Origin: a phage
Length of the DNA stretch: 64,000 nucleotides
Direction: 5' to 3' (one strand)
Sequence record: PZ445432.1
Shown here: in pieces, positions 4,206 through 44,067 of the stretch
Position numbering within the stretch: the stretch's first letter is position 1
How the letters are laid out: each line of letters begins with the position of its first letter
Made by a program: the position numbers and the translations under genes
The notes under the pieces: model-generated
The model's input: only the letters and a program-made list of their open reading frames with translations
The model's database searches: none
Told to the model about the DNA's origin: nothing

Positions 4206-5582
4206 ATGACTATTGATATTAATAAGCTGAAAGAAGAACTTGGTCTGGGTGATCTGGCTAAATCTCTGGAAGGTCTGACCGCTGCTCAGAAAGCTCAGGA
4301 AGCTGAACGTATGCGTAAAGAGCAGGAAGAAAAAGAACTGGCTCGTATGAATGACCTGGTTTCTAAAGCAGTTGGCGAAGACCGTAAGCGTCTGGAAGAA
4401 GCTCTGGAACTGGTTAAATCCCTGGATGAAAAATCTAAGAAGAGCGCAGAACTGTTTGCACAGACTGTAGAAAAGCAGCAGGAAACCATCGTTGGTCTTC
4501 AGGACGAAATCAAGTCTCTGCTGGCAGCTCGCGAAGGTCGTTCCTTCGTTGGTGATAGTGTTGCTAAAGCACTGTACGGTACTCAGGAAGCCTTTGAAGA
4601 TGAAGTTGAAAAACTGGTTCTGTTATCTTATGTAATGGAAAAAGGCGTATTCGAAACTGAACATGGTCAGAATCACCTTAAAGCTGTAAACACCTCTTCT
4701 TCAGTTCAGGTTTCCAGTGAAAACTACGAAACTATTTTCTCCCAGCGTATTATTCGTGACCTGCAGAAAGAACTAGTAGTTGGTGCTCTGTTTGAAGAAC
4801 TGCCAATGTCCAGCAAAATTCTTACTATGCTGGTTGAACCAGATGCTGGTAAAGCTACTTGGGTAGATGCTTCTGCCTACGGTACTGACACTACTACTGG
4901 TGATGAAGTTAAAGGGGCTCTTAAAGAAATCCAGTTTAAAACATACAAACTGGCTGCTAAGTCCTTCATTACTGATGAAACTGAAGAAGATGCAATTTTC
5001 TCCCTGCTGCCTCTGCTGCGTAAGCGTCTGATTGAAGCACACGCTGTTTCTATCGAAGAAGCTTTCATGACTGGTGATGGTTCTGGTAAACCGAAAGGTC
5101 TGCTGAAACTGGCTGCTGATGATGGTGCTAAGGTTGTCACAGAAGCTAAAGCTGACGGTTCCGTAAAGGTAACTGCTAAGATTATCTCTAAACTGCGTCG
5201 TAAACTGGGCCGTCATGGTCTGAAACTGAGCAAGCTGGTACTGATTGTATCTATGGATGCTTACTACGATCTGCTGGAAGATGAAGAATGGCAGGATGTT
5301 GCACAGGTTGGTAACGATGCTGTTAAACTGCAGGGTCAGGTTGGTCGTATTTATGGTCTGCCGGTTGTAGTTTCCGAGTATTTCCCGACTAAAGCTACCT
5401 CAGCAGAGTTCGCAGTTATTGTTTATAAAGATAACTTCGTAATGCCGCGTCAGCGTGCTGTTACTGTTGAACGTGAGCGCCAAGCTGGTAAACAGCGTGA
5501 TGCATACTACGTTACTCAGCGTGTTAACCTGCAACGTTACTTTAATAATGGCGTTGTATCTGGTGCTTACGCTGCATCTTAA
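4206..5582 (+). CDS. major capsid protein with N-terminal scaffolding (delta) domain (pb8-like)
   Basis: 458-aa ORF; N-terminal ~150 aa coiled-coil rich in E/K/L typical of a fused scaffold; strong E. coli-type high-expression codon usage (CTG, CGT, GGT). Confidence 0.85.
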   Translation: MTIDINKLKEELGLGDLAKSLEGLTAAQKAQEAERMRKEQEEKELARMNDLVSKAVGEDRKRLEEALELVKSLDEKSKKSAELFAQTVEKQQETIVGLQDEIKSLLAAREGRSFVGDSVAKALYGTQEAFEDEVEKLVLLSYVMEKGVFETEHGQNHLKAVNTSSSVQVSSENYETIFSQRIIRDLQKELVVGALFEELPMSSKILTMLVEPDAGKATWVDASAYGTDTTTGDEVKGALKEIQFKTYKLAAKSFITDETEEDAIFSLLPLLRKRLIEAHAVSIEEAFMTGDGSGKPKGLLKLAADDGAKVVTEAKADGSVKVTAKIISKLRRKLGRHGLKLSKLVLIVSMDAYYDLLEDEEWQDVAQVGNDAVKLQGQVGRIYGLPVVVSEYFPTKATSAEFAVIVYKDNFVMPRQRAVTVERERQAGKQRDAYYVTQRVNLQRYFNNGVVSGAYAAS

Positions 5583-5595
5583 TATTGACTACTAT

Positions 5596-5615
5596 ACCCT
5601 CTCTTTTGAGAGGGT
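5596..5615 (+). terminator. hairpin after the capsid gene (accctctc-tttt-gagagggt)
   Basis: 8-bp stem read from sequence; weak U-tract. Confidence 0.4.
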
Positions 5616-5638
5616 ATACCATATGACAGTTCATTCAT

Positions 5639-5959
5639 ATGGTATACTTGTATGGGGGCTATCAAATGGCAGGAAAAGCGATACCTTATGAAATAAGGGA
5701 AAAGCAAATTCTAGAAATTTGCGAAAAAGAAGGATATGTATATAAAGGGGTGGTTGGTACCTTTAAGAATTCAGAATCCAAAATACTGATAGAATGCACT
5801 AAGGATGGTAATTGTTGGACTCCACGCATACGTAATTTTGTCAATACTGGTTCACGATGCCCAAAATGTTGTCAAACACGTTTTTTGAAGGCAAAAGAAA
5901 ATAAAGTAGTCTCTATAGAAGATACTCCTGCTATTTTTTTATATTCAAAGATTGACTAA
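5639..5959 (+). CDS. small Cys-rich protein (possible zinc ribbon); may be the 5' part of a frameshifted GIY-YIG-type endonuclease gene
   Basis: ECTKDGNCW ... CPKCC cysteine cluster; C-terminus AIFLYSKID resembles a GIY motif; overlaps the next ORF by 8 nt in another frame. Confidence 0.35.
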   Translation: MVYLYGGYQMAGKAIPYEIREKQILEICEKEGYVYKGVVGTFKNSESKILIECTKDGNCWTPRIRNFVNTGSRCPKCCQTRFLKAKENKVVSIEDTPAIFLYSKID

Positions 5960-6236
5960 CAATTATCACTCAGTTCTAAAATATGGAATAACTTCCCGAA
6001 ATATTGATGTTCGGATTAGAGAACAATCACGAGTATCAGCCTATACTCACGAACTACTCCTATCAGTGCAACTACCTTCTAGACAGGAGGCATTTATGTT
6101 AGAAGCCTTAGTAAAACAGGCTATTCCTTCTGGGTTTCTTACTCCTGCTCTTCTCCCTGATGGGTATACAGAAACCTGTCTTGAAAAATACCTGCCAGAG
6201 ATAAAACATATAGTTTATAATTATATGTTTTCCTAG
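5952..6236 (+). CDS. GIY-YIG-like fragment (YIG half)
   Basis: VLKYGITSRNIDVRIREQ resembles the YIG-T...R segment of GIY-YIG nucleases (compared from memory to I-TevI); begins in the +1 frame relative to 5639-5959. Confidence 0.35.
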   Translation: MTNNYHSVLKYGITSRNIDVRIREQSRVSAYTHELLLSVQLPSRQEAFMLEALVKQAIPSGFLTPALLPDGYTETCLEKYLPEIKHIVYNYMFS

Positions 6237-6248
6237 TAACGGCTCTTT

Positions 6249-6279
6249 AGCCGAAAGAGAGCTTCGGCTCTCTTTTTTA
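6249..6279 (+). terminator. rho-independent terminator (agccgaa-agagagc-ttcggct + T-run)
   Basis: stem-loop followed by TCTTTTTT; directly followed by the TATTGGAAAAATAAA box. Confidence 0.6.
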
Positions 6280-6291
6280 TTGGAAAAATAA

Positions 6292-6804
6292 ATGCAAATC
6301 ATCACTGTTGAAGACTACAGACTATATGCTAATGCAAAGCGACCTGATATGGAAACTCAGGTTGAGATGATGATTAAAGCTGCCAATACGCTGATCACAA
6401 GCCTTCTAGGTATGGATGATGCAGATGCGGTAGATCAATTAATCATTACAAAACCTAGCCGTAGGAAATATTTCCTGAGTTCTCCCGCAGCCACATCTAT
6501 TACAAAGATGACTATTAACGGGGATGAAATAGGCCCGGAACAGTTTAAATTGTACCCTGATGGTGTTATTCTTCTTAAATTTAATCCTCCTGAGGGATAT
6601 ATGGATGTAGAATATACCAAAGGTGGTTTCAATCCAATGCCTGAAGATCTTAAGCTGGCAGCATGCCTGTTAGTAGATCACTGGCATAAGCAAGATTATC
6701 GTCAAGCCAAGACTATTGGTGGGGAGACAATTACGTTTAATAGCACTAAGTCTGGTATTCCAGAGCATATTCGTACAATCGTCGAAGTATATAGGAGAGT
6801 ATAA
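6292..6804 (+). CDS. head completion / neck protein (p144-like)
   Basis: 170-aa ORF at the conserved position between the capsid and tail genes. Confidence 0.45.
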   Translation: MQIITVEDYRLYANAKRPDMETQVEMMIKAANTLITSLLGMDDADAVDQLIITKPSRRKYFLSSPAATSITKMTINGDEIGPEQFKLYPDGVILLKFNPPEGYMDVEYTKGGFNPMPEDLKLAACLLVDHWHKQDYRQAKTIGGETITFNSTKSGIPEHIRTIVEVYRRV

Positions 6805-7571
6805 TGGCTCTTTCTGATATAGCTACACAAATTATTAAAGAGCAGCTAGATACTGCTGGACGATCTGAGAATAATAAGAATACTGTTGTATACACAGTTG
6901 AGACTGGTTTGAAAGATCCTACAAGAGACGGTACAGTTGCACAGGTATCTTTTAAGTTCTCTAAACCAGTATCTCAAGATTTACTTAATGTTAGGACTGC
7001 TTCTATCCTAAAAGCTGTATCTTCTAGCTTAGATCTAACAGGAGACTTAGGTGCTTTAGAAAGCCTTATTCAATCAACCGCAGGCAAGAAATCTTCTGTA
7101 GGTAAAAAACGCTCTACCGGTAGAGTTCAAGTAAACTTTGGGGATCCTAGAGATACTGAAGATGGCTATTCTGGTGCAGTAACAGGTGCTTCCGGTCGTT
7201 TCGTATCGAATAGTAACATGCGTGCTATTCTCGAAATAGTTGCTAAGGAATATTTGATAAAAGATATGAAAAAGGCAGGAGCACCATTAAAATTTAGAAC
7301 CGGTCGCTTTGCTAACTCCTTAAAGATTAAAGACGTTATGCTTAGAGATGCTGGAACTAGCAAAGGTGCTCCTGAATTAAATGTTACATATAATTATATG
7401 GTACGTCCATATTCTGTGTTCAATCCGGCAGTATCTACATACAGAAGATTATCTCTACGACCTTATCCTGGCGCTAGAAACCCACAAAAACTTATTGGTG
7501 AGGCTATAGCAAAAGCTGCAAGAGACCTGATTCACTCCAGGTACAAAATTAAGGTTAATCAAGGAACCTAA
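6804..7571 (+). CDS. tail completion protein (p143-like)
   Basis: 255-aa ORF translationally coupled (ATG overlaps the upstream stop); position in the module. Confidence 0.4.
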   Translation: MALSDIATQIIKEQLDTAGRSENNKNTVVYTVETGLKDPTRDGTVAQVSFKFSKPVSQDLLNVRTASILKAVSSSLDLTGDLGALESLIQSTAGKKSSVGKKRSTGRVQVNFGDPRDTEDGYSGAVTGASGRFVSNSNMRAILEIVAKEYLIKDMKKAGAPLKFRTGRFANSLKIKDVMLRDAGTSKGAPELNVTYNYMVRPYSVFNPAVSTYRRLSLRPYPGARNPQKLIGEAIAKAARDLIHSRYKIKVNQGT

Positions 7572-7574
7572 TAA

Positions 7575-8063
7575 ATGGATCACAGAACAAGTATAGCACA
7601 AGCTCTGGTTGACCGAATAGCCAAACAAATGGATGGCTCTCAACCAGATGAATATTTTAATAACTTGTATGGAAACGTCTCACGTCAAACTTATAAGTTT
7701 GAGGAGATACGAGAGTTTCCTTATGTAGCAGTCCATATTGGAACTGAAACTGGGCAGTATCTTCCTTCTGGTCAGCAGTGGATGTTTTTAGAACTTCCGA
7801 TACTAGTATATGATAAAGAGAAGGATGGAGATATTCAATCTTCCCTAGAAAAACTCGTAGCGGATATAAAAACCGTTATTGACACAGGTGGAAATTTAGA
7901 ATATACTGTTAGTAAACCTGATGGATCGACCTTCCTATGTGAGGCGACTGATATGAGCATTACATCAGTTAGTACAGATGAGGGTCTACTGGCCCCATAT
8001 GGTTTAGCAGAAATAAATGTAACAGTGAGGTATCAGCCTCCACGTAGGTCACTTCGCAGATAA
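7575..8063 (+). CDS. tail terminator protein (p142-like)
   Basis: 162-aa ORF immediately upstream of the tail tube gene. Confidence 0.4.
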   Translation: MDHRTSIAQALVDRIAKQMDGSQPDEYFNNLYGNVSRQTYKFEEIREFPYVAVHIGTETGQYLPSGQQWMFLELPILVYDKEKDGDIQSSLEKLVADIKTVIDTGGNLEYTVSKPDGSTFLCEATDMSITSVSTDEGLLAPYGLAEINVTVRYQPPRRSLRR

Positions 8064-8089
8064 GTTACAGATTAGGAGAAAATAATTAA

Positions 8090-9481
8090 ATGTCTTTACA
8101 ACTATTACGTAATACTCGAATCTTCGTGTCTACGGTTAAGACTGGTCATAATAAGACCAACACGCAAGAGATTCTAGTTCAGGATGATATTTCTTGGGGT
8201 CAGGACAGTAACACAACGGATATTACTGTTAATGAAGCGGGCCCACGTCCTACTCGTGGTTCTAAACGTTTTAATGACTCTTTAAGCGCAGCTGAGTGGA
8301 GTTTTTCTACTTATATACTGCCATACAGGGATAAAACCTCTAATAAACAGATTGTTCCCGACTACATGTTATGGCATGCACTTTCTAGTGGCAAACCCAT
8401 TAACCTTGCAGGTGATACTGGCGCACATAATAATGCTGCTAACTTTATGGTTAATTTCAAAGATAATGCCTACCATGAGCTGGCAATGTTACATATATAC
8501 ATCTTAACTGATAAGGTATGGAGCTATATTGATTCCTGCCAGATTAACCAAGCAGAAGTAAACGTTGATATCGAGGATATAGGTCGTGTGACCTGGTCTG
8601 GTAATGGTAACCAGCTAATACCTCTTGATAGACAGCCATTTGACCCGGATGAAATAGGTATTGATGATGAAACTTATATGACTCTCCAGAGTTCTTATAT
8701 CAAGAATAAACTAACGATCTTGAAGATTAAGAACATGGATACCAATAAGTCTTATGATATACCAATTACTGGTGGTACTTTTACCATTAATAATAATATT
8801 ACCTACTTAACACCTAACGTAATGTCCCGTGTTAATATTCCAATTGGCTCATTTACAGGTGCATTTGAATTAACAGGTTCCTTAACTGCTTATTTGAATG
8901 ATAAATCTCTTGGCTCTATGGAGCTATATAAAGATCTTGTCAAAACTCTTAAGGTAGTTAACCGTTTTGAGATTGCCCTAATACTAGGGGGAGAGTATAC
9001 TGAGGGGCGTCCTGCCGCTGTTCTAGTAGCTAAGCAGGCACACGTTAACATCCCTACTATTGAGACGGATGATGTGCTAGGTACTTCGGTAGAATTTAAA
9101 GCTATTCCATCAGAGCTGGATTCTGGAGACGAGGGTTACTTAGGCTTCTCTAGTAATTATACTAAATCAGCTATTAATAACTTGATTGTTAATGGTGACG
9201 GTGCTGTTGATGCTGTAACAGCAATTACTGTTAAATCTGCTGGTAATGCTACTTCTGTTCGGACTGGACAAACTCTTCAGATGAGTGTTGAAGTTACCCC
9301 TTCTTCTGCAAAGAATAAGGATGTTACTTGGGCTATCACCAGCGGTGACGCAGCTACTATCAATGCAGCAGGACTATTAACAGCCCATGCTAGTAAAACA
9401 GGTGCGGTAACTGTTGAAGCTACAGCTAAGGATGGTTCTGGAGTTAAAGGCACTAAAGTTATTACTGTAACAGGTGGTTAA
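8090..9481 (+). CDS. major tail tube protein with C-terminal Ig-like (Big_2-type) domain (pb6-like)
   Basis: 463 aa; C-terminal ~80 aa VTAITVKSAGNATSVRTGQTLQMSVEVTP...VTVEATAKDGSG has a bacterial Ig-like signature. Confidence 0.75.
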   Translation: MSLQLLRNTRIFVSTVKTGHNKTNTQEILVQDDISWGQDSNTTDITVNEAGPRPTRGSKRFNDSLSAAEWSFSTYILPYRDKTSNKQIVPDYMLWHALSSGKPINLAGDTGAHNNAANFMVNFKDNAYHELAMLHIYILTDKVWSYIDSCQINQAEVNVDIEDIGRVTWSGNGNQLIPLDRQPFDPDEIGIDDETYMTLQSSYIKNKLTILKIKNMDTNKSYDIPITGGTFTINNNITYLTPNVMSRVNIPIGSFTGAFELTGSLTAYLNDKSLGSMELYKDLVKTLKVVNRFEIALILGGEYTEGRPAAVLVAKQAHVNIPTIETDDVLGTSVEFKAIPSELDSGDEGYLGFSSNYTKSAINNLIVNGDGAVDAVTAITVKSAGNATSVRTGQTLQMSVEVTPSSAKNKDVTWAITSGDAATINAAGLLTAHASKTGAVTVEATAKDGSGVKGTKVITVTGG

Positions 9482-9485
9482 TTAA

Positions 9486-10382
9486 ATGTTTTATTCTCTC
9501 ATGCGAGAGTCTAAAATAGTTATTGAGTATGACGGTAGGGGGTATCATTTCGATGCCCTCTCTAACTATGATGCTAGTACGTCTTTTCAAGAGTTTAAAA
9601 CTCTTAGACGTACTATTCATAATCGTACCAACTATGCAGACTCTATTATTAATGCTCAAGATCCTTCATCTATTTCATTGGCAATAAATTTCAGTACTAC
9701 GCTTATTGAATCTAACTTCTTTGATTGGATGGGATTCACGCGTGAGGGGAATTCTTTATTTTTGCCAAGAAATACTCCCAATATTGAACCTATTATGTTC
9801 AATATGTATATTATCAATCATAATAATAGCTGTATTTATTTCGAAAACTGCTATGTATCAACAGTTGATTTTTCTCTAGATAAGAGTATACCGATCCTAA
9901 ATGTTGGTATTGAGTCTGGAAAATTCTCTGAAGTATCTACTTTCCGTGATGGATATACGATTACACAAGGTGAGGTACTACCATATAGTCCTCCAGCAGT
10001 GTATACTAATAGCGTGTCATTGCCTGCGCTAATTTCAGCATCTATGTCCTTCCAGCAACAATGTTCTTGGAGGGAAGATAGAAGTATATTTGATATAAAT
10101 AAAGTTTATACTAATAAACGAGCTTATGTCAATGAAATGAATGCTTCCGCAACGCTAGCTTTCTATTACGTTAAGAGATTGGTAGGAGATAAGTTCTTGA
10201 ATCTAGACCCTGAAACAAGAACTCCACTAATTATTAAAAATAAATATGTTTCTGTAACATTTCCTTTAGCACGTATTTCAAAACGCCTAAAATTCTCAGA
10301 TTTGTATCAGGTAGAGTATGATGTAATACCTACTGCTGATTCAGATCCTGTAGAAATAAACTTCTTTGGAGAAAGAAAATAA
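9486..10382 (+). CDS. tail protein of unknown function
   Basis: 298-aa ORF between the tube and chaperone genes. Confidence 0.5.
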   Translation: MFYSLMRESKIVIEYDGRGYHFDALSNYDASTSFQEFKTLRRTIHNRTNYADSIINAQDPSSISLAINFSTTLIESNFFDWMGFTREGNSLFLPRNTPNIEPIMFNMYIINHNNSCIYFENCYVSTVDFSLDKSIPILNVGIESGKFSEVSTFRDGYTITQGEVLPYSPPAVYTNSVSLPALISASMSFQQQCSWREDRSIFDINKVYTNKRAYVNEMNASATLAFYYVKRLVGDKFLNLDPETRTPLIIKNKYVSVTFPLARISKRLKFSDLYQVEYDVIPTADSDPVEINFFGERK

Positions 10383-10786
10383 TGATTAACTTAAAAGATA
10401 TTACACTAGAAACTCGCACTGTTACCCTTTCATATCCAGGTATGCCTAACTTTAAACTAGAGCTTAACTATATGTCTCGTGCTACTTCTAAACGAGTTAT
10501 TGCTTCTGCTAAGCGTGATGAGTGGGTTAATGGTACTTTGATTCAGGTACAGGATGATGATAAGTTCATTGAAGCATTTGTTGATGCTGCTATTAAAGGT
10601 TGGACTGGTTTGACCGTAGGTGACGTTGAAAAACTGATGCTGATTGAAACAGATGCTGATCCTGCTACTGAAGTTCCATTTAGTCGTGATAACGCTGTAA
10701 TGCTTATGCAGAACTCTGCTGCGTTTGATTCTTGGATCAACCAGACAGTGTTTCACTTAGATACTTTTCGTAGCTCAAAAGCGTAA
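10382..10786 (+). CDS. putative tail assembly chaperone (upstream frame)
   Basis: 134-aa acidic ORF directly upstream of the tape measure gene; the downstream frame is open from 10761. Confidence 0.45.
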   Translation: MINLKDITLETRTVTLSYPGMPNFKLELNYMSRATSKRVIASAKRDEWVNGTLIQVQDDDKFIEAFVDAAIKGWTGLTVGDVEKLMLIETDADPATEVPFSRDNAVMLMQNSAAFDSWINQTVFHLDTFRSSKA

Positions 10787-10847
10787 AGAATTACTAGATG
10801 CTGTTGCTGATTTTGCAGATAAGTGTATTAAAAGCTCAGCATCTAAA

Positions 10848-11216
10848 ATGACTAAACAACAATACTTAATACTTTGTGAGTCAATGGGTATAGAGCCTGA
10901 CCCTAAGGCTATGCCTGTTGAACTTGAAGACTTTCCACCTATTGTAGCTATTAGTATGAATATTTATAATAGTCTGGTTGACTGTTTCATACCTGGTGAC
11001 TTCCCTATCTTTATAGGTAAAGACAAGGCTGCTTTAGGCGTTTTATTTGATATTTATGGGATTACTGATCCCATAGAAAAAGAATTTGTTCTACACATTA
11101 TCAATATATTTGATGCTAAAGCTGTAGATGCTGCACGTAAACGTGCTGAGAAGCATAAACCGCAAAACGGAAGGATTCCTAACGTTAAGCCACATGCTAG
11201 ATCTCGCGCACGATAA
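10848..11216 (+). CDS. putative tail assembly chaperone (downstream, +1 frame)
   Basis: 122-aa ORF with no Shine-Dalgarno before its ATG; its frame is open back to 10761, overlapping the upstream ORF. Confidence 0.4.
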   Translation: MTKQQYLILCESMGIEPDPKAMPVELEDFPPIVAISMNIYNSLVDCFIPGDFPIFIGKDKAALGVLFDIYGITDPIEKEFVLHIINIFDAKAVDAARKRAEKHKPQNGRIPNVKPHARSRAR

Positions 11217-11252
11217 AAGTTTCCTCCAATGGGGCGTTCCACGATGGGGCTT

Positions 11253-11285
11253 GGCTCTGGGTGATATGCCCAGAGCCTTTTTTAT
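11253..11285 (+). terminator. rho-independent terminator (ggctctggg-loop-cccagagcc + T-run)
   Basis: perfect 9-bp stem followed by TTTTTTATT, then the GGGAAAAATAAA box. Confidence 0.6.
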
Positions 11286-11300
11286 TGGGAAAAATAAAAT

Positions 11301-14300
11301 ATGACTGATAAGCTAATACGAGAATTACTAATAGACGTTAAACAGAAAGGGGCAACCCGTACTGCAAAGTCTATTGAAAACGTATCTGATGCACTAGAAA
11401 ACGCTGCCGCTGCTTCTGAACTGACAAATGAACAGCTAAGTAAAATGCCCAAAACTCTATACTCCATTGAGAGGGCAGCAGATAGAGCAGCAAAAAGTCT
11501 TACAAATATGCAAGCTAGTAGGGGCATGCTTAGTATCACTAAATCTATTGATGGTATTGGTGATAAGCTAGATTACCTGGCTATCCAACTTATTGAAGTA
11601 ACAGACAAACTAGAAGCTGGATTCGATGGAGTTTCTAGATCTGTTAAGGCAATGGGTAATGATGTTGCAGCTGCAACAGAGAAGGTTCAAGATAGATTGT
11701 ATGACACCAATAGAGTTTTAGGCGGTACAACTAGGGGTTTTAATGATACTGCTGGCGCCGCTGGTAGAGCTTCTAGAGCTATTGGTAATACTTCTGGTTC
11801 AGCTCGTGGTGCAACTCGTGATTTTGCTGCAATGGCTAAAGTTGGTGGTGGTTTACCATTATTATACGCTGCTTTTGCTTCTAACGTATACGTCCTACAG
11901 ACTGCTTTTGAGAGCCTAAAAGTAGGTGATCAGCTAAACAGATTAGAACAGTTTGGTACTATTGTTGGCACCATAACAGGTACTCCTGTTCAGTCCCTTG
12001 CTAGATCACTACAAGAGGCAGCCGGCTATGCAATCTCTTTTGAAGAAGCTATGCGTCAAGCATCCTCTGCCTCCGCTTATGGATTTGATGCTGAACAACT
12101 TAATAAATTTGGTCTAGTAGCTCGTCGTGCTGCTGCTGTTCTTGGTGTTGATATGACTGATGCACTTAACCGTGTAATTAAGGGTGTATCAAAACAAGAA
12201 ATCGAACTTCTGGATGAACTTGGTGTTACTATTCGTCTTAATGACGCATATGCTGACTATGTTAAACAGCTAAATGCTGCTAACACTGGTATAACTTATA
12301 ACATTAATAGTCTTACTACTTTCCAGAAACAGCAGGCGTATGCTAATGCTGTTATAGCAGAGTCTACCAAACGTTTTGGTTACTTAGATGAAGTTTTACG
12401 TGCTACTCCGTGGGAGCAGTTTGCTGCTAACGCAGATGCTGCACTAAGAACAGTACAACAAGCTGCTGCTAAGTACTTAGGTCCAGTAATTGATGCTATC
12501 AACACAGTATTTTATACCTCTCAGGCTTCTGTATCTGCTGAAGCAGCTAGAGCTCAAGAACAAACTAATAAACAGATAGATCCTACCAACGTTGGTGCTG
12601 TTGCTTTAAGTTTGGCTGCTTCTGAAGAAGGGTATAATAAAGCTCTAGATATGTATAGGGAATCCCTTGATAAGCGCAATAAGCTAAAATCTGAGTTCGA
12701 TAAACGAATGTCCCAAGCAGACGCTAGTACTGCTGCCGCTATTAGGTTGGTGGGCGAGGGGATGCCTGTTGGGTTAGCTGCTGGGGGATTTGAAGTAGGA
12801 GGGCTACGCATAGGTTCTTCCGAAGCTAATAAAAAGTTCGTAGAGGAAACCGCAGCTATGGGGCTGCAGATAGCAAGGCTAAGCAAAGAAGTTGATGACT
12901 CTACTGAAAACCTTAATGCTTGGAAGTCAGCCTATCAAGCTGCGGGTGCCGCTGCTGCAAAAGCTAATCCAGAATTCCAAAAACAGATTAATCTACACAG
13001 GGATACTACTGATCCTGATGCTGTATACGATTTTAACTCTACTGTATTAAAAGGACTAACTGAACAACAAAAAGCATATAATCAGACTAAGAAAACTGCT
13101 AGTGACTTAGCTAATGACTTTCAAAATATAGCTAGTAGCACAGATACTGCTGCTAAAACCAGTGCAGCTTTTGAAGGGGTAATTAGAAATGTAGAATCTC
13201 TCTCCGCAGGAACTGGTAAGAGTGCCGATGAATATGTTAAAAATCTTAACTTAGGGTTTAATACCCTATCTGAGATGAAAACTGCATCCCAGGCTCTATC
13301 TGAGTACGTTAAACTAACTGGTAATGAAACTAAAAATCAGTTAGCAGTTCAACAGAAAATAGCTGATGTGTACAATAAAACTAAGGATAAGGAAAAGGCT
13401 CAGGAAGCTGGTAGACGTTTAGAGTTGCAACAGTTAGAAGAGCAAGAAGCTGCTTTACGCCGTGTTCTTCAAACAAACCAGGGAAATAAAGCTGTTGAGA
13501 AAGAAATTGAAAAAATTCAGCTGGAGAAACTTAAACTTACCAATCAGGGTATGGAAGCTCAGAAGAAGGTCAAGGATTACACAGATAAAATCCTGGGTGT
13601 AGATCGTGAGATAGCTCTCTTAAATAACCGTACTATGACAGATACTCAGTATCGTCTAGCACAGTTAAATCTTGAATTGACCGTTGAAAAAGAGAAGTAC
13701 GAATGGTACACAAAACAAGCTGATAAACAGAAAGAGGCGGAACAGTCTAGACGTGCTCAAGCCCAAATTGAACGTGAAATCTGGAAATTCCGTCAAGATC
13801 AGATTGCTTCAATGGCTGCTGGTAGAGAGGAAGAACAGCAAAGACAATTTACTGCTAAACCATTAATGGGAAATGCGGAGCGCTTACAGGAACAGCTAAA
13901 ATTATATGAAGACTTAAAGCAGAAAACATTAGGTAATGCTGTGGCACAGGCGGAATATAATAAAAAGATAGCTGAAACTAGGGCACAACTAGCAGGTCTA
14001 AGGGCACAGAGGGATGCGGAGATGCAGCAACAGGTAGGGTCTTCTGTAGGTGCTGTATATACTCCTACAACTGGACTATCTGGAGAAGATAAAGATTTTG
14101 CTGATATGCAAAATAGAATGGCTTCTTATGATCAGGCAATCTCTAAACTATCTGAGTTAAATTCCGAAGCAACTGCTGTAGCTCAAAGCATGGGTAATTT
14201 AACTAACTCTATGATTCAGTTCTCCCAGGGATCTCTAGATACTACGTCTATGATTGCTTCTGGTATGCAGACTGTAGCCTCGATGATTCAATATAGTACT

Positions 14301-15008
14301 AGCCAACAAGTTAGTGCGATTGATCAGGCTATTGCAGCAGAACAGAAACGAGATGGTAAATCTGAAGCATCTAAAGCTAAACTGAAGAAATTAGAAGCTG
14401 AAAAGCTTAAAATTCAACAGGATGCAGCTAAGAAACAGATTATCATTCAGACAGCAGTAGCGGTAATGCAAGCAGCAACAGCTGTACCATATCCGTTCTC
14501 TATTCCTCTAATGGTGGCGGCAGGTTTGGCAGGTGCACTGGCTCTTGCTCAGGCATCTTCCGCATCTGGTATGTCTTCTATCGCTGACTCTGGAGCAGAT
14601 ACTACTCAGTATTTAGCCCTAGGTGAACGACAGAAGAATGTTGATGTATCTATGCAAGCTAGTTCAGGAGAATTATCCTATCTACGTGGTGATAAAGGTA
14701 TTGGTAATGCTAACTCCTTTGTTCCACGTGCGGAAGGCGGTATGATGTATCCTGGAGTAAGCTATCAAATGGGTGAGCACGGTACCGAGGTAATTACTCC
14801 TATGGTTCCTATGAAAGCTACGCCTAATGATCAGCTTTCCGAAGGATCAAGGTCCTCTTCTGGTAGACCTATTATCCTGAATATCAGCACTATGGATGCA
14901 GCAAGCTTCAGAGATTTTGCATCGAATAATAGTACTGCTTTCAGAGATGCCGTGGAACTGGCTCTTAATGAGAATGGAACCACCCTGAAATCTCTTGGTA
15001 ATTCTTAA
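11301..15008 (+). CDS. tail tape measure protein (pb2-like)
   Basis: 1235 aa; long Ala/Gln/Glu-rich coiled-coil; position between the chaperones and distal tail protein. Confidence 0.85.
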   Translation: MTDKLIRELLIDVKQKGATRTAKSIENVSDALENAAAASELTNEQLSKMPKTLYSIERAADRAAKSLTNMQASRGMLSITKSIDGIGDKLDYLAIQLIEVTDKLEAGFDGVSRSVKAMGNDVAAATEKVQDRLYDTNRVLGGTTRGFNDTAGAAGRASRAIGNTSGSARGATRDFAAMAKVGGGLPLLYAAFASNVYVLQTAFESLKVGDQLNRLEQFGTIVGTITGTPVQSLARSLQEAAGYAISFEEAMRQASSASAYGFDAEQLNKFGLVARRAAAVLGVDMTDALNRVIKGVSKQEIELLDELGVTIRLNDAYADYVKQLNAANTGITYNINSLTTFQKQQAYANAVIAESTKRFGYLDEVLRATPWEQFAANADAALRTVQQAAAKYLGPVIDAINTVFYTSQASVSAEAARAQEQTNKQIDPTNVGAVALSLAASEEGYNKALDMYRESLDKRNKLKSEFDKRMSQADASTAAAIRLVGEGMPVGLAAGGFEVGGLRIGSSEANKKFVEETAAMGLQIARLSKEVDDSTENLNAWKSAYQAAGAAAAKANPEFQKQINLHRDTTDPDAVYDFNSTVLKGLTEQQKAYNQTKKTASDLANDFQNIASSTDTAAKTSAAFEGVIRNVESLSAGTGKSADEYVKNLNLGFNTLSEMKTASQALSEYVKLTGNETKNQLAVQQKIADVYNKTKDKEKAQEAGRRLELQQLEEQEAALRRVLQTNQGNKAVEKEIEKIQLEKLKLTNQGMEAQKKVKDYTDKILGVDREIALLNNRTMTDTQYRLAQLNLELTVEKEKYEWYTKQADKQKEAEQSRRAQAQIEREIWKFRQDQIASMAAGREEEQQRQFTAKPLMGNAERLQEQLKLYEDLKQKTLGNAVAQAEYNKKIAETRAQLAGLRAQRDAEMQQQVGSSVGAVYTPTTGLSGEDKDFADMQNRMASYDQAISKLSELNSEATAVAQSMGNLTNSMIQFSQGSLDTTSMIASGMQTVASMIQYSTSQQVSAIDQAIAAEQKRDGKSEASKAKLKKLEAEKLKIQQDAAKKQIIIQTAVAVMQAATAVPYPFSIPLMVAAGLAGALALAQASSASGMSSIADSGADTTQYLALGERQKNVDVSMQASSGELSYLRGDKGIGNANSFVPRAEGGMMYPGVSYQMGEHGTEVITPMVPMKATPNDQLSEGSRSSSGRPIILNISTMDAASFRDFASNNSTAFRDAVELALNENGTTLKSLGNS

Positions 15009-15013
15009 TATTG

Positions 15014-15042
15014 GAGGAGGACTTTATGTCCTCCTTTTCTTT
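15014..15042 (+). terminator. rho-independent terminator (ggaggac-tttat-gtcctcc + T-run)
   Basis: 7-bp stem followed by TTTTCTTT, then the GGAAAAATAAA box. Confidence 0.6.
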
Positions 15043-15061
15043 ATGGAAAAATAAAAATTTC

Positions 15062-15090
15062 TTGATAAAATTTTCCAATACTATTATAAT
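15062..15090 (+). promoter_or_regulatory. sigma70-like promoter TTGATA-17-TATAAT upstream of the distal tail protein gene
   Basis: hexamers and 17-nt spacer read from sequence. Confidence 0.45.
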
Positions 15091-15117
15091 ATTGTTATTA
15101 AAGAGGAGAAATTAACT

Positions 15118-15732
15118 ATGAGACTACCAGATCCATACACGAACCCAGAGTACCCAGGGTTAGGTTTTGAAAGCGTCAATTTAGTAGATAACGACCCTAT
15201 GATTCGTGATGAATTACCTAATGGTAAAGTCAAAGAGGTTAAAATATCTGCTCAATACTGGGGAATTAATATCTCATACCCGGAACTTTTCCCGGATGAA
15301 TATGCATTTCTAGACTCTAGGATTTTAGAATATAAAAGAACTGGAGATTATTTAGATGTACTCCTGCCTCAGTACGAAGCATTTAGAGTACGTGGTGATA
15401 CTAAGAGTGTTACCATACCTGCCGGTCAAAAAGGTTCTCAAATTATACTAAATACTAATGGAACCTTGACTGGGCAGCCAAAAGCTGGGGATTTATTTAA
15501 GTTATCTAATCATCCTAAAGTTTATAAAATAACAAATTTTAGTAGCTCAGGAAACGTATGGAATATTTCCCTATATCCTGATCTATTTATTACTACTACG
15601 GGTAGTGAAAAACCAGTTTTTAATGGTATCTTATTTAGAACTAAGCTAATGAATGCTGATTCTTTTGGTTCTACATTAAATAACAATGGTACTTACTCTG
15701 GTATTTCACTTTCCTTGAGGGAAAGTCTATGA
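15118..15732 (+). CDS. distal tail protein (pb9-like)
   Basis: 204 aa; position directly after the tape measure gene. Confidence 0.75.
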   Translation: MRLPDPYTNPEYPGLGFESVNLVDNDPMIRDELPNGKVKEVKISAQYWGINISYPELFPDEYAFLDSRILEYKRTGDYLDVLLPQYEAFRVRGDTKSVTIPAGQKGSQIILNTNGTLTGQPKAGDLFKLSNHPKVYKITNFSSSGNVWNISLYPDLFITTTGSEKPVFNGILFRTKLMNADSFGSTLNNNGTYSGISLSLRESL

Positions 15733-32322: not shown

Positions 32323-32352
32323 ATTATACTAGATTTCGAGAGAATTTAGCAA
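32323..32352 (-). promoter_or_regulatory. early promoter TTGCTA-18-TATAAT
   Basis: hexamers read on the minus strand; conserved AT-rich leader ATATACATAAATTCGAGGAG follows. Confidence 0.6.
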
Positions 32353-32423
32353 CTAAAATTTTTATTTTTCTGCTTCGGACTTTCTTATCAATCCGAAACT
32401 TTCTCTCTCAAATTTATGTGTAT

Positions 32424-32452
32424 ATTATACATCATTTATAAGCTGTTGCCAA
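32424..32452 (-). promoter_or_regulatory. early promoter TTGGCA-17-TATAAT (second copy, in tandem)
   Basis: hexamers read on the minus strand; leader ATACACATAAATTTGAGAGAG. Confidence 0.55.
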
Positions 32453-43656: not shown

Positions 43657-44067
43657 TTATTTAGTGATGGCTCGAATTGCTTCTGCCAGATGAGCAGCCG
43701 CTTTACCGGTCAGTTTGTCGATAATTGCATCATCCAGAAAATCTGGTGCTAAGCCAGCGTCAGAGAATGCTGAGCGAAGGTCAGCATGAGCTTGGGCTTT
43801 GGAGGTACGAGAACCACCAGAGGCTTTTTCTGCAGTAGATGCGCTAGATTTAGAAGCAGAGCCAGCAGCTTTCTTGATATACACACCTGCTTTAGTCAGC
43901 TTCATACGAAAACCGTTCGGAGTTACACCATTTTCCTGGGCAATTTCGCTAACAATTTCCATGCTAACATTCGGACGTTCATCCTCTGGGAATTGCTCCA
44001 TACGAGCAACGTATTCGGAAGACATTTTTTCGAACAGTTCATCAGTCCACTGAGTTGGAGTAGTCAT
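43657..44067 (-). CDS. hypothetical Ala/Ser/Lys-rich protein
   Basis: 136 aa; own promoter; high-expression codons. Confidence 0.5.
   Translation of the reverse strand: MTTPTQWTDELFEKMSSEYVARMEQFPEDERPNVSMEIVSEIAQENGVTPNGFRMKLTKAGVYIKKAAGSASKSSASTAEKASGGSRTSKAQAHADLRSAFSDAGLAPDFLDDAIIDKLTGKAAAHLAEAIRAITK

Follow-up and report, generated by a model that had tools for sequence, protein, structure and literature searches.

A repeated A-rich box behind three late terminators of a T5-like phage probably serves as ribosome-binding region at two junctions and as promoter upstream region at the third

T4-type phages carry repeated promoter/stem-loop cassettes (PeSL) and a phage-specific late promoter motif (e.g. 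TATAAATA). Other described systems that combine a hairpin or a short A/T-rich sequence with the start of a gene are the intercistronic attenuator terminators of phage late operons and the Shine-Dalgarno (SD) ribosome-binding sites that possess an A/U-rich, unstructured leader (S1-type enhancer). For T5-like promoters, an AT-rich block around -43 (AAAAATT) was described (PMC3326045), and an alignment of T5 late promoters displays an UP (upstream) element according to its legend (Fig. S5 of PMC7472727). Here we analysed a stretch of 64,000 nucleotides (nt) of phage DNA (sequence record PZ445432.1, hereafter the window), in which an earlier note, made by inspection of the letters, had pointed to three intrinsic terminators in the structural module that are each followed by the same A-rich element. 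It had proposed that this element, here called the box, could act as a single conserved signal for late-gene re-initiation, as a translational enhancer or as a processing site. We find that the three copies most probably do not represent one regulatory element, the box being part of a ribosome-binding site (RBS) at the first two junctions (sites 1 and 2) and the upstream part of a promoter at the third (site 3). As such, the repeat is ordinary regulatory grammar, the parts of which are largely annotated already in related phages.

Between positions 6000 and 15300 the window is 100% identical to Escherichia phage HildyBeyeler (MZ501074.1; Tequintavirus, T5-like, Demerecviridae), window positions being obtained by subtracting 482 from those of the record. 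These bases form the late structural module, with the gene order terminase, portal, protease, major capsid, head completion (6292), tail completion, tail terminator and tail tube (8090), followed by minor tail, two tape measure chaperone open reading frames (ORFs), tape measure protein (11301), distal tail protein (15118), baseplate hub and fibres. As close relatives we used 28 T5-like loci from IMG/VR, the counts of variation and invariance given below being drawn on 30 T5-like sequences, and as distant relatives the same region from six other Demerecviridae genera, represented by Spivey, My1, PR1, Bennett, Stubb and Vibrio phage 70E36-1. Genome-wide motif scans covered both strands of record positions 482-111607 of the 111,607-bp genome, motif counts were compared with 100 dinucleotide-preserving shuffles, and a census of ribosome-binding sites comprised 168/169 annotated genes of HildyBeyeler.

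The exact sequence shared by the three junctions is the 11-mer GGAAAAATAAA, present on the plus strand at 6282, 11288 and 15045. In the window it occurs three times on both strands together, compared to 0.14 expected, a count that none of the 100 shuffles reached, and the genome-wide search returned the same three copies only, none of them within coding sequence. With its flanks the box reads TTTTTTATTGGAAAAATAAA at site 1 (6273-6292), its final A opening the ATG at 6292, TTTTTTATTGGGAAAAATAAAA at site 2 (11278-11299), ahead of the ATG at 11301, and TTTTCTTTATGGAAAAATAAAAA at site 3 (15035-15057), ahead of the ATG at 15118. Each copy is preceded by a hairpin and a T-tract, which a terminator scan found as well, and starts 9-10 nt past the hairpin; the similarity between the copies also includes the T-tract (TTATTGG / TTTATGG). 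The recurrence thus exceeds chance, and the anatomy described in the earlier note was accurate, as was its claim that in two cases the box directly precedes the start codon, the distance being 0-5 nt at sites 1 and 2 compared to 62 nt at site 3. Among the 28 T5-like loci, the box is found at all three junctions with the exception of site 2 of T5 itself and of one locus that ends before site 3.

At site 1, box copy 1 (6282..6292, plus strand) has the composition of a ribosome-binding region, GGA followed by an AAAATAA spacer, for the head completion gene (6292-6804, ATG at 6292), and at site 2, box copy 2 (11288..11298, plus strand) likewise offers GGGA and an A-rich spacer to the tape measure gene (11301-15008, ATG at 11301). 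The GGA and GGGA are placed 7-10 nt before the ATG and are complementary to the 3' end of the 16S rRNA. The predicted duplexes with the anti-SD sequence are weak (-3.3 kcal/mol at site 1 and -4.2 kcal/mol at site 2), compared to a genome median of -6.1 kcal/mol and to -9.1 kcal/mol for the distal tail gene. Both start codons are fixed by conserved N-termini (MQ.. for the head completion protein, M(T/S/A)DK for the tape measure protein), and at both sites an ATG is present within about 13-20 nt in all genera compared.

The position taken in T5-like genomes by ATTGG(G)AAAAATAA is occupied in the other genera by a plain Shine-Dalgarno sequence (GGAG, GAGG, AGGAGG, AGGTGA or AAGGA). My1 has TTTGGAGTAAAT before the ATG of site 1 and TTTGAGGTAATAAA before that of site 2 (SD GAGG), Vibrio phage 70E36-1 has TTTTAGGAGGTAAGAA and TTTTTAAGGAAATTTAAA (SD AAGGA at site 2), Bennett TATGGGGAATACG and TATGGAGAAAACA (SD GGAG at site 2), Stubb ATTGGGTAAAATAA and ATAGGTGAAATTCAA (SD AGGTGA at site 2), and Spivey ATTGGGTAAAAT and ATTGGAAAAAATC. 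Independent annotations place curated RBS features on these very bases, namely on the GGA of the box in Shivani and on the equivalent GGGT/GGA in Spivey. Moreover, 11-mers resembling the box with at most two mismatches are found in 7.7% of the RBS windows of this genome, an approximately 12-fold enrichment, the share being 0.65% for random windows of the genome and 1.0% for those in intergenic DNA. Close look-alikes precede other genes (e.g. GGAAAAACAAATATG and GGAAATATAAAATATG), and the same style of leader recurs at many genes, for example as ttGGAGAAAAATAATA-ATG, aaAGGAAAATAAATA-ATG and aaAGGAAAAACAAAT-ATG.

Within the T5-like genomes, both sites vary in length. At site 1 the G-run counts two or three residues or is replaced by ATTATTAGGAAAAATAA (AGG) and the T-run ranges from 6 to 13, while at site 2 the A-run ranges from 4 to 6 and the spacer between box and ATG from 0 to 5 nt. 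Such tolerance of changes in homopolymer and spacer length is RBS-like and would not be expected of a site that a protein reads base by base. T5 has an HNH-like ORF, some 770 bp long, between the T-tract of site 2 and its tape measure gene; this gene nevertheless keeps acaGGAAAAcattagATG, indicating that the purine and A-rich leader moves with the start codon and not with the terminator. At sites 1 and 2, a promoter scan found no promoter in the interval from the terminator to the ATG, and the possibility of a promoter downstream of boxes 1 and 2 was rejected for lack of consistent -35/-10 hexamers and because the distance from box to coding sequence varies from 0 to 5 nt among relatives.

Taken at the level of sequence, the box at sites 1 and 2 is a weak Shine-Dalgarno sequence with an A-rich spacer, i.e. 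a predicted weak member of the usual RBS pattern of this genome. It shares with the RBSs that carry an S1-type enhancer the purine triplet or quadruplet at 7-10 nt before the ATG and the A-rich spacer, a pattern common to many genes of HildyBeyeler, and differs from the typical case in that the SD is below the genome median and in that the entire leader is fitted into the approximately 20 nt between terminator tail and ATG. The proposal of a translational enhancer therefore came close for these two sites, where the box would belong to the translation initiation region.

At site 3, box copy 3 together with the adjoining AAATTTC (15045..15061, plus strand) forms an A/T-rich, UP-like region at about -53 to -36 of a predicted promoter of the distal tail and baseplate genes. 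Its sigma70-type core, TTGATA-17-TATAAT (15062..15090, plus strand), matches the consensus at 11/12 positions, with a start predicted near 15097, upstream of the SD sequence AGAGGAG (15102-15108, plus strand) and the ATG (15118) of the distal tail gene. Counted from this start the box lies at about -52 to -42 and ends only 6 nt ahead of the -35 hexamer, so that the earlier note's view of a separate promoter did not hold. The other genera show the same arrangement of a terminator, some 20-25 nt of A/T-rich sequence and a near-consensus promoter, which reads TTGAnA/TTGACA-17-TATAAT in six of them and TTGACT-16-TATAAT in Bennett, and the annotation of PR1 places a promoter at this junction. In an alignment of eight sequences from seven genera, TTG, TATA and an AAA at about -43 are invariant and the remaining upstream positions differ; GGAAAAATAAA is confined here to the T5-like genomes, Spivey having TGGAATTTATAAAATTATC. 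The two properties looked for in an UP element, an A/T-tract next to the core promoter and likeness to the upstream regions of other promoters of the genome, are both present, the upstream consensus of 25 intergenic consensus promoters being TTAAAAATTTA, adjoining the -35 hexamer.

The box at site 3 is, in our reading, the A/T-rich upstream part of a sigma70 promoter, which the C-terminal domain of the RNA polymerase alpha subunit (alpha-CTD) may contact. In common with the sigma70 UP element and the T5 -43 block it has an A-tract just upstream of the -35 hexamer of a near-consensus promoter, and it matches the AAAAATTT block upstream of approximately 20 other promoters in the genome. Its GGAAAAA half, at about -52 to -46, is more distant from the core than the block conserved at those promoters. 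With a promoter that would restart transcription behind a terminator, site 3 comes close to the late re-initiation signal once proposed for the box.

The 15-mer GAAAAATAAAAATTT is also found ahead of an early promoter, TTGCTA-18-TATAAT, on the minus strand near window positions 32352-32371, and at this same place, again behind a hairpin, lies AGAAAAATAAAAATTTTAG, the one further near-copy of the box that the genome contains. The surrounding region (about 32340-32450, minus strand), between a helicase and the operon of the single-stranded DNA-binding protein (SSB), contains two tandem near-consensus promoters of early type, TTGGCA-17-TATAAT and TTGCTA-18-TATAAT, the second of which has the hairpin and the one-mismatch copy of the box ahead of it. 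Both are followed by an ATA(T/C)A..ATAAATT discriminator region, which is related to that of T5 early promoters (PMC7472727).

The hairpins in front of the boxes are a family-wide feature. The site 1 terminator, behind the capsid gene block (6254..6281, plus strand), has the stem AAAGAGAGC / GCTCTCTTT with a UUCG loop, followed by TTTATT, and is preceded by a small hairpin at 6240-6253. The site 2 terminator, behind the tape measure chaperone genes (11253..11286, plus strand), consists of GGCTCTGGG-loop-CCCAGAGCC (11 pairs, 7 of them GC) and TTTTTTATT, and the site 3 terminator, behind the tape measure gene (15013..15043, plus strand), of GGAGGAGGAC-loop-GTCCTCCTCC and TTTTCTTTAT. At all three sites a stable, GC-rich hairpin is directly followed by a T/U-tract, with folding energies for hairpin and flanks of -20.7 kcal/mol at site 1 (6237-6310), -32.5 kcal/mol at site 2 and -16.9 kcal/mol at site 3 (15009-15060), and z-scores of -3.6, -2.4 and -3.7, respectively. 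Structure is conserved over sequence: double, compensatory changes across genera affect 3/10 pairs at site 1, 2/9 at site 2 and 8/9 at site 3 (seven genera at site 3). The site 1 hairpin GAGAGC-TTCG-GCTCTC is kept in five genera, with other hairpins in its place in two Vibrio phages, and the layout of a hairpin and T-tract behind the capsid, chaperone and tape measure genes is kept across the family.

The curators of Spivey marked the hairpins as terminators, and that of site 2 is annotated as such in both Spivey and PR1. A terminator immediately followed by an RBS or a promoter recurs elsewhere in the genome, at record positions of about 58488, 83032, 85915, 88394 and 94279, and on the minus strand at 43780 and 52697. 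By these features the three stretches are conserved intrinsic terminators at which transcription would be expected to end. They resemble the intercistronic attenuators of phage late operons in their GC-rich hairpin with an immediate T-tract just past the stop codon, in their covariation across genera and in being annotated in Spivey and PR1, and show nothing unusual. A bidirectional terminator was rejected, since the upstream flanks lack a T-rich complement, and a search with Rfam covariance models over 5500-15500 gave no match with an E-value up to 1.

A number of observations weigh against the division of the box into two RBSs and a promoter upstream region. Sites 1 and 2 have 21 identical bases in common despite their unrelated hairpins, and for a promoter-upstream site and two RBSs to carry exactly the same 11-mer would be improbable if these had arisen independently (roughly 1e-3, a crude figure obtained by multiplying by hand the column counts of the promoter-upstream alignment and not a tool output). 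At site 3, the box and the AAATTTC show no variation in 30 T5-like sequences, which are so close that this says little either way, and a weaker promoter-like match, TGGAAA-16-TAAAAT (9/12, with a TG before the second hexamer), has its first hexamer overlapping the box. A search of the literature returned no maps of transcript starts or ends and no translation data for T5-like phages that could bear the division out. Part of the excess identity can be attributed to ancestry, because site 3 of Spivey already has a T-tract, GGAA, a stretch rich in A or T and TAAAA. What remains of it may be historical, or stem from a slight effect on termination common to the sites or from a factor that binds them all; taken together, these three are an unlikely but not negligible explanation.

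The most far-reaching alternative is that the box, together with the T-tract, is a single sequence-specific cis-element at all three junctions, bound as DNA or RNA by a factor of the T5 clade (e.g. a late transcription or RNA-binding protein) or by an A-tract-binding host factor that tunes what happens after the terminator. The triple occurrence of an exact 11-mer that is found nowhere else in 111 kb, the invariance at site 3 and the identity above the hand-calculated estimate would fit such an element, and the switch of T5 to late transcription is still an open question (PMC7472727). A dedicated late control element would be expected to keep a fixed distance to either the start codon or the transcription start, and the box keeps neither; it would be expected at the same junctions of related genera, and among the genera compared the three-way repeat is confined to the T5-like clade, PR1 having the box at sites 1 and 2 and lacking it at site 3, and Spivey having three different sequences. 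This absence from orthologous junctions is the outcome that the earlier note itself had named as speaking against its proposal, and with ordinary SD sequences or a different A/T-rich stretch in other genera and unequal distances in this one, the idea of one conserved element with one function did not stand. Late-module specificity is lacking as well, given that the one-mismatch copy AGAAAAATAAAAATTT sits before a promoter in the early, replication-gene region and that other late junctions do without the box, such as the conserved late intragenic promoter at 7879, and length polymorphisms of the A-run and G-run are tolerated. We consider a single element improbable, and slightly more so its specific form, in which the T-tract and GGAAAAATAAA constitute a cis-element shared by the T5-like clade. 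A phage-encoded or host factor, binding A-rich tracts beside terminator hairpins, would through it control together the read-through, how strongly the tape measure and head completion genes are translated and, late in infection, the activity of the baseplate promoter. If true, it would bear on how T5 controls its late genes with an unmodified host sigma70 polymerase. In comparison with the PeSL cassettes and late motifs of T4, the box is alike as a short repeat beside stem-loops at gene-module borders; unlike these, it has no fixed relation to the transcription start, counts three copies only, is not found at other late transcription units and stands behind unrelated hairpins.

The constant start of all copies at 9-10 nt past the hairpin could alternatively point to the terminators themselves, the A/T-rich sequence past the T-tract being a terminator-distal element that raises termination efficiency and recurs for that reason. 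Sequences distal to the terminator can alter the efficiency of T3 and T7 early terminators in vitro, and an exact 20-mer, TTTTTATTGGGAAAAATAAA, stands behind hairpins in two unrelated viral contigs too, in one of which (42.6 kb) it also precedes the ATG of a tape measure gene, the other being a 46 kb contig. Unrelated sequences follow other strong terminators of this genome, however, orthologous terminators keep hairpin and T-tract without the box, and different DNA stands behind the site 2 terminator of T5, making this explanation as doubtful as the shared A-tract factor. We estimate roughly that one or two such unrelated 20-mer matches are expected by chance, and they fit a generic string of terminator tail plus AT-rich RBS. 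The similarity that reaches into the T-tract (TTATTGG / TTTATGG) and the resemblance of site 3 in Spivey would also agree with the copies being remnants of a duplicated terminator-RBS cassette, or of short-patch recombination, with the site 3 promoter gained later and the identity purely historical. Against such a history stand the unrelated hairpin sequences, the presence of the site 3 promoter in every genus examined, which makes it ancient, and the variants of sites 1 and 2, which do not change together in T5-like genomes, so that we hold it to be very improbable. Least credible of all is a processing site of the RNase E/RNase III type at which read-through transcripts are cut behind a protective hairpin: an A/U-rich single-stranded stretch is indeed found beside a stable hairpin, but at sites 1 and 2 a cut within the box would deprive the downstream gene of its RBS, the Rfam search gave no match, and the hairpin between U-tract and A-box reaches just -1.2 to -3.0 kcal/mol, with 29-43 of 200 shuffles folding equally well, for which reason it was also rejected as a structure in its own right. 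Nothing was found that would support the processing site suggested before.

Several smaller candidates were discarded. Of two mini-ORFs, ATG-GAA-AAA-TAA (site 3) and TTG-GAA-AAA-TAA (site 1), the reading frame is not preserved in most T5-like genomes and neither occurs in other genera, and the ATG in the loop of the site 3 hairpin is lost in relatives with the loop TTTGAG. Concerted evolution or gene conversion between the sites was rejected on account of the independent variation of sites 1 and 2, and a mobile cassette because the scan of viral contigs for the exact 20-mer returned T5-like genomes, PR1-type contigs and the two unrelated contexts. Anchored scans with variable gaps gave the same T5-like contigs and one stray 16-kb contig, with no added diversity. 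In the 42.6 kb contig (L067, 9480-9560, minus strand), the hairpin and TTTTTATTGGGAAAAATAAATG, a string identical to T5-like sites 1 and 2, directly precede a tape measure gene of 639 amino acids, the product of which is without significant similarity to the T5-type protein.

Under the preferred reading of two RBSs and one promoter upstream region, the box would simply be the first signal directly behind three conserved terminators of a late operon that is compact and rich in A/T. The genes for head completion and tape measure, with no promoter found between terminator and ATG, would be reached only by read-through transcripts, and the box would there act as translation initiation region, with a weak SD and an unstructured A-rich spacer ending at the ATG, whereas the promoter of site 3 would restart transcription for the distal tail and baseplate genes behind the terminator. 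In the T5 virion, capsid and tail tube proteins are present in copy numbers far above those of the completion and tape measure proteins. A layout for dosage control would fit this, in which a terminator combined with a weak RBS, behind the genes of the high-copy capsid and tail tube proteins, holds down the output of virion proteins needed in few copies, and promoters at 7879 and 15062 bring the transcript level back. Along the late operon, terminator 1 would close the capsid genes and be followed by the genes for head and tail completion, which would be weakly translated; the tail tube gene would come behind an internal promoter, the tape measure gene, again with weak translation, behind terminator 2, and the baseplate genes behind terminator 3 and its promoter. 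The internal promoter, TTGACA-17-TATACT (7879..7907, plus strand; 11/12), lies within the tail terminator gene at approximately 200 nt upstream of the tail tube gene. Both its hexamers are unchanged in 30/30 matches in T5-like loci and six further genera have the same motif ahead of their major tail gene, at -199 to -209, and it probably boosts the high-copy tail tube gene. This gives a clean reading of the punctuation of T5-like late operons, with three family-conserved terminators, two putatively weak ribosome sites and two conserved promoters, that is useful for annotation and for the design of engineered T5-like phages and otherwise matters little.

Between the stop codon of the chaperone genes and the site 2 terminator lies a conserved non-coding block, AAGTTTCCTCCAATGGGGCGTTCCACGATGGGGCTT (11217..11252, plus strand), nearly every base of which is shared by six Demerecviridae genera, in contrast to the diverging coding DNA on either side. 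In the alignment GGGC-TTCCA is invariant, GGGCGTTCCA is present in 7/8 sequences, with GGGCATTCCA in Bennett, and TTTCCTCCA is near-invariant; Vibrio phage 70E36-1 still keeps AAATTTCTCCAAT. Its pyrimidine runs (UUUCCUCC and GUUCCA) are anti-SD-like and complementary to the tape measure RBS. Sequestration of the SD by these runs was considered and rejected, the predicted pairing probabilities being inconsistent across genera, and the block gave no Rfam match. Upstream of it, the second chaperone ORF (10848-11216, within 10382-11216, plus strand) has no Shine-Dalgarno sequence (duplex -0.1 kcal/mol) and the two chaperone ORFs are annotated as one joined product in Salmonella phage Shivani, which suggests a programmed frameshift of the lambda G/GT type.

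Finally, insertions are found exactly at these junctions. The HNH-like ORF of T5 (about 10895-11678 of its locus, approximately 250 amino acids) lies between the T-tract of site 2 and the tape measure gene, and HildyBeyeler has, from its capsid gene to the terminator of site 1, an insertion of two small ORFs and a putative homing endonuclease (window 5639-6236). Junctions between a terminator and the next gene thus appear to be preferred insertion points for ORFs resembling homing endonucleases.

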